Both the position numbers and the translations under genes were made by a program. A stretch of 64,000 nucleotides of DNA from Perkinsus olseni. Lineage: Eukaryota. This document shows positions 9,041 to 15,587 of the stretch, piece after piece. Under the pieces are notes generated by a model. That model was not told where the DNA came from. It ran no database searches and worked only from the letters and a program-made list of their open reading frames with translations. Each line of letters begins with the position of its first letter. Within the stretch, counting starts at the first letter, position 1. The DNA is taken from NCBI GenBank assembly GCA_013115125.1, contig JABANN010000103.1:1-64000 (forward strand), in the 5' to 3' direction.

Positions 9041-12000
9041 ATGGAAAATTTGGCGTTCATCTTTTCCTCAAGCTTACCGTGGCAGCTATCTTCCCGTTTT
9101 CTACTGTTTACTGCATAATATAAGATAAGACCACGAACTAACAGCAAGAGGGTTTCTCGGCTACCTTCGAGACCGAACATTCGAGCACGATTCTCAGAGT
9201 TTGAAACGTCTCAATCAAGCTGTGGTCATCGTTTGCAGTTTGTGCATGTTTGTGATCATCCTCTTTGATGTGGGCGTATGACTTCCTCGCATCCGATCCA
9301 CCTATAGCCAGGAGGCTGAGCTCGCACCTGCGAGCCAATAATGTCGTCCTCAAGTGCTGGCAGAATGACAAGGAGTACGACTGTCGTCTGCCGCGTTATT
9401 GATTGAAACGCTCCATAGAGATGCTCGGGACTTCTTCTCAGTCTCCCGCCAAACTTCAGATCGCCTGGGATGGCACGACTCTCGCGCTTTCTTCTGTATC
9501 TTCTCATGTGAGAATGCCCCCATCATAAGTGCGAGCTTCTGTGCGACTAGCGGAATCAGTTACGGTTCGGTGTCTGGTATCTTGATGTCGACGAGAAGTC
9601 ACGACTATGGGATCGGCTGTCGAATGAGATCTGCTTGCAAGCTTGGCTGCGTCGTGGACTCTTTTCCTCTTTCATCCTGCGAGAAGCATCTGGACATGGT
9701 ACGGTGAACGCGCATAACGAACTCATTGTCTGCCTTGAGATGATAGGTTATCACATTTGGCGGAAACGAATACTCAGCATTATATCTCTATAAGAAGCCG
9801 CTAGATGAGTTCGGTGCAACATCTAGTATCTTCGCAGACTTCTGCGCTCCGAGCATCCCGGCTTATGACACACTGTCAGAGATTGAGGCCGCTAAACTTT
9901 GGGATGGCCGGCTTCCCAGGTGAGGTCCATGCATATCGAGCGGCTCGTTTCGGGAGCGTGCTCGCTTGTCTAGGACTGGAATATGTTTCCCAGCGTGCAA
10001 GGCGGAAGGGTATGATGCTGCTCAATCCATTAGTCTCGAGGTGAGAAAAACGCTCTCTGAATAGGATACTATTGACGTGGCCAAGACGTGCTCTTACATG
10101 TATTTTTATCTTTCTACAATAGGACGAATTGAGCCTTGATGCTCTCCCTGCCGGAAAGGCACTCACCATGACGTTATACGCGGCTAGTGGTGACAGTAGA
10201 CCCTATTGCTCGCAGCTTGGCATAGATATCGAGGAACATGATTTGCTGTGTGTTGAGCCGGAAGACGGCTGTGAGACTGACTCTTTCCGAAACGAGGTAG
10301 GCCGATCGTAGGGGCAATACGCGCCGAGGTTGAGTGCAGGTGTGCTACAGTGGGCAACAGAAAGACCATGGGGCCATCTGCATATCGTGGGGACGCGTCT
10401 TCCTGGCGATACTCTGCAGCGCCCCGACCCAGTTCGTCCTCGATGTTCTTCTTTTGTAATTCAGAAGCTCGTCCCAGGTGTCACTTCCCGGCGTCCATAT
10501 GTCGTGCTCAGACTGATTGCCATCAGCGATAGTGGTTACAAGTCGCAGCTTGGCGAGCATGACTTAGCTGATACTGCTGTGGTTGCAGCCTCTCGCAAGT
10601 GCACCTTACAATGGCTCCTCCTAAGCGTCTTCGTAGCACTAGTTCTGGTCGTTTCCAGCGACGTCTTCCACACGATAAAGTAACGCTCTGACCGAGATTC
10701 ATTATCCCGAGGGATTGCGCGCTCAGGTATGGACGACCTCTATCTTTTCTCGTTTTCTGGTTTGCAGTCTTTGTGTTAGACCAGCTACGCAACCTCGCCT
10801 TCCAAGCCCTGATCTGGTGGGTGGAGCGGGGTCGGCCTATTTATAATTCTTACAGGTTCGTGCTTATGCGGAAACTTGGTCGTGTGCGAGTTGAGCCCGA
10901 CCAGAACCCTCCTGGCTCCTCACTAACTACCGGTAGTGATGGTCACCAAGGAGAGGCGCATGAGCCGAGTGGGTCGCTGTATCTGCCGATCATTCCACTA
11001 GATCGTTTCAATCAGGTCCTTGGCAGCTCCTCCGTGGGCTGACCATACTTGTAGTTGACTCCAGGGGTTTCGAATTCTCCGTGTATGGTCTAGTTGGTGT
11101 CTACGCTCTCTTTATTCTTGCAGCCCTAGGTGGGGCTGAGCTATGTGTCTCCTGCTAGCATTTAGACCCTCAGGCATCGAAGAGTACGTGAGTGAGGCTG
11201 TCAGCGATGTCTTCGAGACAGTGGACACAGTCTTCCTCGTGTTCTTCCTGCTGGAAATAATAATGAGACTCATGTATAACCTCGCTTGTCATTGAACGCG
11301 TCACTGCTCTCTTTAGCGCGGAGACAGGATACTGGTACCTCAATGATCGGTGGAACCTGTTCGACTTCGTCATTGTTGTGGGCTCCTTTGTGGCGAAGGT
11401 ATTGGGGCGCGGTGGTCCCTTCTTTCACTGCTAGCGGAGGAACGATCAGTGATGGGCCATTTCCAGATTGCAGATTGCGGCCCCCGGGAATGCTAAGTCC
11501 TTCACCATCCTGAGGCTTTTTCGTTTACTTCGGCTTGTGCTTGCCTTGCGCAAAGCGGGTAGAAGCAGGAAAAAGCGCCGCGGCCATCACGGTAGGATTT
11601 CTTGGTCTTCACCTCTTCAGTGGAGCCTGCAGGTGCCGACACCGCATTACAGTTCAGCTCTCGAGTTGACAGAGTAATGGACATCCTCCGCGAGGTGCGA
11701 GAGACTAAGGGTCTATCTGGACCCATGCGCGAGAGAGTCAACTGGGCTTCTGAGATTATCAATACCAACAACCTATACACTATATCGGTCACAGCAGGGA
11801 AGCGCGGCACATCAGGGGGGGACGGCGATGACGAGCTCGCGGCCATTCGGCAAGAGATCAATGAGTGGCTGGCTCTCGGCAGGTGATTCTGTGCCTCAGT
11901 TTGTCTGACATTACTCAGCCACCTCGGCGACAAGTCCTGCCCTTGAGTTGAATCTCCATCCTCAGCGCGAGTGCTAAGACAAGTACCAAAACATGGCGAG

Positions 12001-15000: not shown

Positions 15001-15587
15001 TCGAATCCCTCACTCGCATGTTCCGGGGTTCCCCATGTTCAGTTTGAGTCGCTATCACGGCTCCTGACGCTGACCCCGAGTCTGCAGTGCAGACCCAACT
15101 CAGTCCCTGCGTTGGTCATTTAACCTCGCAAACCTTCAGGTCTTAGCCCAGATGCTACCGGATCTCGTGAATGGGGAATGCCTCCCGAATCTTCAGCTCA
15201 GTCGCCAGTATTACGCGACGCGGGAAGACTTCGCACCAGTGGAAGGTCTGAGGCTCTCAGACTCTTGTTCTTGCTCCATGTTGTCCAGGTGCAGACATTG
15301 GGAATGGCCTCCGGTCGAGTCTAGCGTTTAAGCAAATGTCGAAGATAAAGTCATTCAACACTTCTAAGGTAACGGATGCATCACTCGTGACGTCATGGAG
15401 TTTACAACACAGGCATCGCTAATACTGGTGCCCGATACAGTTACTGGGCGACGCTTCCACCACCACGCCTAGCAGCCAAGAAGCGTCCAAGTGTGCAGAA
15501 ACTGGTGGAGATGCTGCAACGATATTGACGAGAGCTCGTCGCATCTTCGGAGACGTGATTAAATGCTTGATGAATCATAGACTCTGA
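9041..15587 (+). CDS. Membrane class I 3',5'-cyclic nucleotide phosphodiesterase with N-terminal TM region and S1-S4 voltage-sensor domain
   Basis: PDE motifs in order: WTFNVF (~12570), PYHNSMHTVEVMQ (~13695), IHDYEHPG..SPFLVNTHHPMAIRYSDNA|VLENHHLAAAF (13934-14140), MVLMTDNQNHF, LLHAADISYPSR (~14520), [44 protein letters not shown] (~14940). Upstream exons encode TM helices and S1-S4 (11016-11591). Start codon uncertain. Confidence 0.9.

Follow-up and report, generated by a model that had tools for sequence, protein, structure and literature searches.

A Perkinsus olseni gene predicted to join a pore-less voltage sensor to a cyclic-nucleotide phosphodiesterase, and its relatives in other protists

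The window analysed here is a 64,000-nt stretch of Perkinsus olseni DNA (contig JABANN010000103.1, positions 1 to 64,000), and one gene on its forward strand is predicted to fuse a pore-less voltage-sensor domain (VSD, segments S1-S4), a linker and a cyclic-nucleotide phosphodiesterase (PDE). An earlier note, made from the DNA sequence alone, had proposed such a gene. This architecture is genuine, old and widely distributed, and more elaborate than first noted. The family comprises a long form like the P. olseni gene, with an additional N-terminal membrane module, and a short form that consists of VSD, linker and PDE only. We regard the fusion as real on comparative grounds, namely colinear fused homologues and Pfam matches in both domains. 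By analogy with voltage-sensing phosphatases (VSPs), voltage probably controls cyclic-nucleotide hydrolysis in the P. olseni protein.

The coding sequence (CDS) was revised to 31 exons on the + strand that encode 1243 amino acids (aa), running from ATG 9268 to the stop codon at 15585-15587. Contigs from three runs (X1-X3) labelled 'RNA?' were used for this revision. They skip GT..AG introns and bear adapter and spliced-leader ends, and all RNA observations given here rest on 15 of 42 joints and 24 of 135 pieces listed. Exons 1-4 were set by RNA joints 9374/9442, 9507/9560, 9698/9747 and 9919/9974 (X1 and X3), and the remaining exons are those of the NCBI model, mapped back onto the window via GT/GC-AG sites. 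Twenty-six junctions of that model could be mapped, 25 of them GT-AG and one GC-AG; the sole GC-AG intron is 14423-14471. The NCBI model skips exons that, once spliced, begin with MWAYDF at ATG 9268, and this is the conserved first Met of full-length homologues. The revised translation matched all six family sub-profiles and was 61% identical to the P. chesapeaki homologue P0022 across aa 106-1232. The span first proposed, 10589-15587, ends correctly at the conserved stop, but its start lies too far downstream: the CDS opens at 9268, which places position 10589 inside coding exon 8. The N-terminal 400 residues and the exons that span 11883-13525 had not been recognised at first. Two other start codons were rejected: the frame-0 ATG 10612, which lies outside the conserved frame, and ATG 13525 as a start of the PDE, since the PDE fold already begins at about 12562. 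The exon following 13426 starts at 13625 in the NCBI model; moving the start to about 13524 would lengthen the protein by some 34 residues.

The 5' end of the mRNA was indicated by loose contig ends. An X1 contig starting at 9237 was preceded by adapter and GCTCA, and an X3 contig at 18086 was preceded by TCTTGGCTCA. Both loose ends agree with the 3' end of PmaSL1, the Perkinsus spliced leader whose sequence is given in PMC3101222, and AG 9237-9238 is therefore read as the acceptor for trans-splicing (papers are given by PMC number). X3 record 16 extends to 10968, and its unlisted middle has the length of exons 9974-10040, 10123-10296 and 10340-10455. The loose ends of X3 contigs show junctions 11129/11174 and 11591/11633, and X2 record 10 joins 11882/11966 and 12074/12418. 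Arithmetic on the bin means of X1 record 5 (32.5, 33.9) fits the fully spliced form exactly.

Five exons had been spliced by hand in the earlier note, and four of them (11016-11129, 11317-11398, 11474-11591 and 11633-11882) were GT-AG as written. The second had been given as 11174-11274; with its end at 11273, the phase is consistent and S2 finishes in the quoted 'RLI'. Joined in this way, the exons yield S1, S2, S3, S4, the basic linker and the helical segment that had been read from them. The predicted protein P0002, which is annotated by NCBI at this locus, gave a Pfam Ion_trans match at residues 707-816 (E 1.4e-15, 57.6 bits against a cut-off of 25), covering profile positions 4-113 of 241; together with the PDEase_I match given below, this goes well past what chance would produce. 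Exon-wise, the Ion_trans matches were weak and confined to three of the four sensor exons (E 0.0087, 0.00035 and 0.29), and Pfam found no match for S1, the linker exon or 13465-13752.

The sensor of the P. olseni protein carries an S2 with an acidic residue, Phe, Glu and then a basic residue four positions past the Glu. The S2 Phe, S2 Glu and S3 Asp of the charge-transfer centre are all present, and S4 has Arg at R1, R2, R3 and R5 plus a Lys. The S2 pattern, the S3 Asp and the S4 register are those of a canonical voltage sensor. Conservation was scored in 67 family proteins, where the S2 Phe was found in 62, the S2 Glu in 64 and the S3 Asp in 66. Arg occupied R1 in 44 proteins (Lys in three more), R2 in 62, R3 in 58 and R5 in 43, and three or four basic residues were present at the five S4 register positions in 60 of the 67. 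Among the 60 of 123 PDB matches listed, the closest solved sequences were the sensors of Nav1.x, Cav and bacterial Nav channels, and these 60 included no VSP or Hv1 chain. The best whole-sequence E-value, 2.4e-24, is a sum across all four Nav1.3 repeats; for a single stretch, the best i-Evalue was 5.8e-07. Judged by these residues and matches, the predicted sensor is a canonical pore-less S1-S4 domain of the Nav/Cav type.

The absence of an S5-P-S6 pore, as first noted, was upheld. The Ion_trans match stops at profile position 113 and there is no transmembrane (TM)-like window in aa 530-827; likewise, no hydrophobic 19-residue window was found between S4 and aa 827, which is already within the PDE fold. 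The match ended by profile position 125 of 241 in all 16 proteins compared, and a TM-like window was absent from 60 of 62 family linkers, the two exceptions being genomic models with linkers of ~400 aa. There is no room for hidden S5-S6 exons, because the open reading frames (ORFs) of homologues fill transcript-sized contigs. A voltage-gated channel with hidden S5-S6 was accordingly rejected, as neither the protein nor the homologue ORFs contain a pore segment. Hv1 channels are recognized by an acidic selectivity residue inside S1 and by the RxWRxxR form of S4. These signatures are missing here, as had been stated: S1 is free of internal acidic residues and S4 lacks a Trp. An Hv1-like sensor was rejected on both counts, together with the lack of any Hv1 chain among the PDB matches listed.

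Downstream of the sensor exons, stop-to-stop frames contain every block of a class I PDE domain. Pfam PDEase_I matched P0002 at residues 1185-1426 (E 2.3e-66, 224.3 bits against a cut-off of 24.8, profile positions 1-231 of 238) and was found in four of the five PDE pieces tested exon-wise. The residues that bind metal are known from class I PDEs in general. The earlier claim of intact metal ligands and an invariant Gln proved correct, as all motifs were found and all six scored sites were present. The six key catalytic residues are kept in 50 of the 67 family members, including the P. olseni protein. An AlphaFold2 model of the homologue P0025, built from 71 aligned sequences, had a mean predicted local distance difference test score (pLDDT) of 83.5 and a predicted template-modelling score (pTM) of 0.55. 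It showed helices for TM0, TMa-c, a pre-S1 helix and S1-S4, and an all-helical PDE domain (pLDDT ~96) that superposes on PDE4B/4D with a TM-score of 0.87-0.95 on the target and a root-mean-square deviation (rmsd) of ~2 Å. In P. olseni, P. chesapeaki and P. marinus, the first helix of the PDE is followed by a conserved insertion of ~100 residues that no other aligned family member has. The predicted enzyme is an intact class I cyclic-nucleotide PDE, PDE1-like and of 'clade B'.

Between sensor and enzyme, the family shares a series of linker motifs: a basic cluster, followed by SSPVERVL-like, L.W...II.S.KLY-like and NELEKFL-like helices. In the AlphaFold2 model of P0025, the basic segment after S4 is disordered and is followed by the linker helices. 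A two-chain fold was run without alignments on P0025 residues 487-630 and 662-990, which are parts of one homologue chain. The last linker helix, 597-623, was predicted to dock on PDE residues 665-722 with a score of 0.71, while the best of three controls scored 0.01. Runs agreed in at least 83% of contacts, and the partner pLDDT was at least 54. Of 78 solved complexes, 51 attain the mark used for docking, and of 108 mismatched pairs, 2 do so. The two-chain fold gave no position for the linker helices that precede helix 597-623. The docking result may speak to the packing of the chain, not to voltage moving it.

The reality of the fusion was examined in related proteins. The 82-residue linker exon as query gave three protein matches among 402 candidates: the P. 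olseni proteins P0002 (1724 aa) and P0001 (1494 aa), both at 100%, and a P. marinus fragment at 77%. A search with P0002 residues 690-1440 among proteins of 948-3017 aa (7999 candidates scored) gave 16 matches, six of which carry both PF00233 and PF00520. One of the six is the window's own protein and another is P. chesapeaki P0022; the other four, 983-1047 aa in length, take up the whole of contigs of 3.3-3.9 kb. A search of shorter proteins gave 19 matches, none with both domains; among them, a P. marinus PDE fragment lies on the same contig as an S4-linker fragment. Pfam finds both domains in all five homologues P0022-P0026. A five-sequence alignment (A1) shows the same order of parts throughout, N-terminus to PDE end, with invariant residues in every part.

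The A1 profile was then searched against 1.84 billion 50%-identity cluster representatives and, at E 0.001 or better, matched 25,696 proteins, of which most are ordinary PDEs. A family census was made of 149 new proteins among the best 150 of these 25,696, which were scored by sensor and PDE sub-profiles. Both sub-profiles were matched by 61 of the 149, comprising 17 of the long form and 44 of the short form; the rest were linker and PDE only (21), PDE only (65) and N-terminal fragments (2). With Pfam, which is independent of the family sub-profiles, Ion_trans and PDEase_I were both above the cut-off in ten of ten sampled representatives. The family has named members in Chromera velia, Amoebophrya sp., Rhytidocystis, Besnoitia besnoiti, Oxyrrhis marina, a dinoflagellate, the ciliate Protocruzia adherens and the stramenopile Platysulcus tardus. 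Several of the named members are transcriptome ORFs. The uncharacterised homologues in other alveolates for which the earlier note had allowed were thus found, plus one stramenopile. Chromera P0038 and the coccidian Besnoitia P0046 match six of six sub-profiles from the N-terminus to the PDE, and P0046 is among the proteins aligned in A2/A3. Pfam scans of 15 relatives gave no BT1 or Ank domain, and scans of P0002 and the same 15 gave no phosphatase family at E 0.01 or better.

In its long form, the protein begins with a conserved N-terminus and a membrane module. The N-terminal profile was made from three non-Perkinsus rows only, P0023 and P0022 being dropped as mostly gaps. Hydropathy peaks at aa 49-67 mark TM0, and those at aa 253-283, 315-333 and 344-362 mark TMa-c, with an acidic loop between TMa-c and the sensor. 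The region between TM0 and TMa has 11 Cys between aa 78 and 244, the cysteines being invariant throughout alignment A1, and is mixed alpha/beta in AlphaFold2 models of homologues. We infer a topology of eight TM helices, with the Cys-rich domain outside and the N-terminus and PDE in the cytosol. The N-terminal module (P0055 / P0025 residues 1-350) was modelled confidently (pLDDT 81, pTM 0.70). It matched no Pfam family, ESM Atlas gave no usable match for P0025 residues 1-350, and Foldseek of the model against the PDB gave no match at E 0.001 or better. A Polycystin-1-like membrane module was considered for this part; in a wide VIA-align search, the best row was 8z6b_A (Z 8.9, rmsd 7.2, 207 aligned), which is inside the noise range for helical models.

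We propose the following mechanism. S4, with its Arg at R1, R2, R3 and R5 and its Lys, would move with membrane potential, and this movement would be handed on, first by the basic segment behind S4 and then by the conserved linker helices, to the NELEKFL helix. That helix would pack on the N-terminal subdomain of the PDE, and the movement would alter the hydrolysis of cyclic AMP (cAMP) and/or cyclic GMP (cGMP), much as the VSP sensor controls its enzyme. A broader claim can be made more tentatively, at slightly less than an even chance: the family would be a second class of voltage-sensing enzymes, in which a Nav/Cav-type sensor sets cAMP/cGMP breakdown and the long form integrates voltage with an ectodomain cue. 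A role of the enzyme in flagellated stages is a guess.

Several observations weigh against voltage control. The R4 position of S4 is hydrophobic in 54 of the 67 family proteins and Arg in only four, and the ectodomain of the long form could be the real input. At least one catalytic residue is lost, or lacking in the alignment, in 17 of the 67 members, several of these cases being gaps in partial sequences. Besnoitia P0046 reads HRWDNQ at the six key sites yet keeps the S4 arginines. Because the 17 members keep the sensor, it may serve a role without hydrolysis, and catalytically degenerate members could be voltage sensors attached to a pseudo-enzyme. The RNA contigs add further points. A single mRNA over sensor and PDE, as first envisaged, was supported as far as 12485, to which contigs bridge exons among the joints listed; no listed joint falls within 12485-14918, and the whole of 13281-13550 is left unspliced in X2 record 11. 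X1 includes long unspliced, genomic-like contigs (record 2, 4894-6673), and therefore X1 cover over the PDE exons is no proof of mRNA. X3 record 16 retains the short introns 10680-10726 (47 nt) and 10817-10855 (39 nt) while neighbouring introns are removed; retention of 10680-10726 brings a stop directly after 10680 and would leave a fragment of the ectodomain and two TM helices. Finally, the listed RNA contigs use acceptor 15413 and not the conserved 15441, which leads to a stop at 15470-15472.

In the leading alternative, the membrane part responds to a different input or fills a different role. In the receptor-type version, the ectodomain would bind an extracellular cue and the TM bundle, including S1-S4, would relay it or act as an anchor, voltage not being the physiological input. 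The conserved ectodomain with its invariant cysteines, the four extra TM helices of the long form, the confident model of the N-terminal module and the retention of the membrane part in members with degenerate PDE sites all fit such a receptor. However, 44 of the 61 new representatives have neither ectodomain nor TMa-c and still keep VSD, linker and PDE. Gating charges and the charge-transfer centre are moreover kept in 58-66 of the 67 proteins, which a mere anchor would not need. We hold a receptor-type PDE to be unlikely, while giving it real weight.

The hydrophobic R4 position bears on a different possibility, that the sensor itself conducts ions or protons (Hv1-like or as a gating pore) or joins a separate pore subunit, the PDE merely adjoining a channel. 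Gating-pore currents are usual in sensors that lack an S4 charge, according to PMC10651576 in the part available, and an ion-transport link is suggested in the available text of the Toxoplasma papers PMC8809380 and PMC7720076. Such conduction is improbable for this protein, given that S1 lacks an internal acidic residue, that the nearest sensors among the PDB matches listed are Nav, Cav and bacterial Nav with no Hv1 or VSP, and that no pore segment is present.

Still less probable is a locus of two genes, a membrane VSD protein ending near 12600-13200 and a soluble PDE starting at ATG 13525. The lack of listed RNA joints from 12485 to the PDE exons and the contig unspliced over 13281-13550 would agree with this, as would the P. 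marinus annotation, where the locus is divided between P0003 and P0006 on a single contig, and the NCBI 'variant 2' model P0001, which stops at 13199. Against it, the PDE fold begins at ~12562 with the W.FNVF helix, upstream of the supposed break, and P0003 already joins S4 to the N-terminal part of the PDE. Every full-length homologue is fused, and no spliced-leader loose end occurs between 9237 and 18086 among the RNA ends listed.

Hardly credible is the NCBI model of one 1724-aa BT1-VSD-PDE-ankyrin protein: it stands annotated as P0002 and P0001, and one X1 contig connects the 3' exons of the PDE with ankyrin exons, but a spliced-leader end lies at 9237, the skipped RNA-supported exons 9239-9698 encode the family's conserved first Met, no homologue scanned has BT1 or Ank, the PDE frame of the RNA contig stops at 15470-15472 while the ankyrin ORF opens with a separate ATG at 16045, and the contig joints 15368/15413 and 15554/15825 differ from the model's 15371/15828. 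P0002, which maps onto window positions 6261-17563, has BT1 at residues 6-264 and ankyrin repeats at 1525-1634 in Pfam. P0002 and P0001 are chimeras in which a BT1 transporter was wrongly joined upstream and an ankyrin protein downstream. The features of the gene as revised are collected in the table.

Table 1. Predicted features of the P. olseni VSD-PDE gene in window coordinates.
Feature	Position (nt)	Residues (aa)	Strand	Basis or remark
AG acceptor for spliced-leader trans-splicing	9237-9238		+	X1 contig end; mRNA exon 1 from 9239
Revised CDS	9268-15587		+	RNA joints for exons 1-4, mapped NCBI model for the rest
Conserved N-terminus (MWAYDF...) and TM0	9268-9611	1-75	+	N-terminal profile, E 1.4e-17
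Cys-rich ectodomain (ECD)	9618-10354	78-247	+	ECD sub-profile, E 8.7e-52
Three TM helices before the sensor (TMa-c)	10373-10886	254-377	+	Sub-profile, E 6.7e-29
Voltage sensor S1-S4	10968-11560	405-532	+	Exons 11016-11129, 11174-11273, 11317-11398, 11474-11591
S2 Phe/Glu/Arg	11242-11268		+	Motif location
S3 WNLFDF	11351-11368		+	Motif location
S4	11507-11554	515-530	+	Motif location
Polybasic stretch (11561-11581) and helical linker	11561-12044	533-652	+	Linker sub-profile, E 2.9e-46
Linker motif LQFSS	11647-11661		+	Conserved in long and short forms
Linker motif NELEKFL	12003-12023		+	Conserved in long and short forms
Class I PDE catalytic domain	12562-15160	711-1140	+	Pfam PDEase_I; PDE sub-profile, E 2.5e-128
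Perkinsus-specific PDE insertion	12847-13013, 13058-13198		+	Two exons; ~100 residues after first helix
PDE motif YHNSMH	13696-13713		+	
PDE motif IHDYEH	13934-13951		+	
PDE motif LENHH	14109-14123		+	
PDE motif HAADIS	14522-14539		+	
Invariant-Gln motif KCQVGF	14937-14954		+	
Last coding exon and stop, conserved C-terminal tail	15441-15587		+	Tail aligns to P0022 up to aa 1232 of 1243

The neighbouring genes have ends of their own. Upstream, a loose end of the spliced-leader type at 3452 belongs to the BT1 (folate-biopterin transporter) gene, whose start lies near 3468 and whose model region is 3452-8769. Downstream, the ankyrin-repeat ORF (region 15825-17563) has its own ATG at 16045 and encodes 246 aa. 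An X1 contig of 2038 nt (14924-18056) leads from the penultimate coding exons of the PDE into the ankyrin gene; intron 14985-15139 of the PDE is retained in it, the acceptor at 15413 is used, and 15554/15825 is then spliced. The contig could stem from a precursor, read-through or polycistronic, or from a 5' untranslated region of the ankyrin gene that overlaps. The matching X3 contig seems, from bin arithmetic, to start at 16126. A further spliced-leader-type loose end (TCTTGGCTCA) at 18086-18098 marks the 5' end of the next gene downstream. The assembly has a gap of 98 N at 39760-39857.

Part of this architecture is already in print. The pair of Ion_trans and PDEase_I has been reported for Toxoplasma TgPDE4 and TgPDE16 as an 'ion transport domain' (PMC8809380, PMC7720076), and PMC7720076 calls the TgPDE4 domain cation-channel-like, 'an apparently exclusive feature', and describes many substitutions in signature residues of this enzyme. 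PMC10865986 places TgPDE4 and TgPDE16 in 'clade B' with human PDE1 and PDEs of free-living alveolates and reports that both are expressed only in cat stages. The word 'voltage' occurs in none of the available parts of these three papers. Both Toxoplasma proteins resemble the P. olseni protein in having an ion-transport domain and a PDE on one chain, as far as the available text describes them. TgPDE4 and Besnoitia P0046 are catalytically substituted and agree with each other in this, whereas the Perkinsus enzyme is intact. Through P0046, the P. olseni protein is probably orthologous to TgPDE4, judging from sequence.

The earlier note knew of no characterised VSD-PDE. This holds in that none was found in print as a voltage sensor, and it needs amending in that the domain pair had already been noted for TgPDE4 and TgPDE16. 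Searches of open-access papers and bioRxiv (supplements and figures excluded) gave no voltage-sensing, -gated, -dependent, -sensitive or -activated phosphodiesterase. The word 'phosphodiesterase' occurs neither in the available part of PMC10651576, on VSD protein families, nor in that of the 2024 review 'Voltage sensors' (PMC13095418). The reading of a pore-less sensor driving a PDE is thus new in the open-access literature searched, and the domain pair was known.

If true, a voltage-driven PDE would link membrane potential to cAMP/cGMP without Ca2+ or a channel, and flagellated and ciliated protists of the stramenopile-alveolate-Rhizaria group would have a one-protein link from membrane potential to cyclic-nucleotide level. 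It is an old observation that cyclic-nucleotide levels of ciliates follow membrane potential, and a voltage-driven PDE would bear on it. The cyclase side of this ciliate link is described in PMC10651576. The voltage question is directly testable, because the family is large and its short intron-free members (~600 aa) from free-living protists suit expression in oocytes or human embryonic kidney (HEK) cells. A voltage-controlled PDE would also be a candidate tool for voltage control of cyclic nucleotides.

Among known systems, human PDE1 is the closest animal catalytic domain, with 35-39% identity over about one third of the query, and the NCBI product name PDE1B follows from this. For annotation, the name 'calcium/calmodulin-dependent PDE1B' and the 1724-aa model are misleading. 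The PDE1 N-terminal domain PF08499 was unmatched at E 0.01 in six of six full-length members (P0002, P0022-P0026), and in contrast to PDE1 the regulatory part of the P. olseni protein is a predicted membrane sensor. PMC10651576, in the part available, covers channels, VSP, the sperm Na+/H+ exchanger SLC9C1 (sNHE) and channel-cyclase fusions as VSD proteins. The channel/adenylyl-cyclase fusions of Paramecium, Tetrahymena and Plasmodium described there combine, like the P. olseni protein, an S4-type sensor with a cyclic-nucleotide enzyme. These fusions keep a K+ pore and make cAMP, whereas the P. olseni protein is predicted to be pore-less and its PDE to degrade cyclic nucleotides. SLC9C1 likewise has a VSD that regulates a non-channel activity; its VSD follows the transporter domain and regulates ion exchange (PMC10651576), whereas the P. 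olseni VSD precedes the enzyme.

The parallel drawn at the outset with VSPs was well founded in layout: one gene encodes a sensor, a basic and then helical linker, and a PDE. In VSPs (Ci-VSP / TPTE), a single chain carries a pore-less S1-S4 sensor followed by a basic linker and an enzyme in the cytosol, and to our knowledge VSPs are the only enzymes established as directly driven by an S4 sensor. The P. olseni protein differs from them in several ways. Its predicted enzyme is a cyclic-nucleotide PDE and not a PTEN-like phosphoinositide phosphatase. Its linker comprises ~180 residues with conserved helices, whereas the VSP linker is short, and its sensor is nearest to Nav/Cav, with no VSP among the PDB matches listed. 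The long form, in addition, has four more TM helices and an ectodomain ahead of the sensor.

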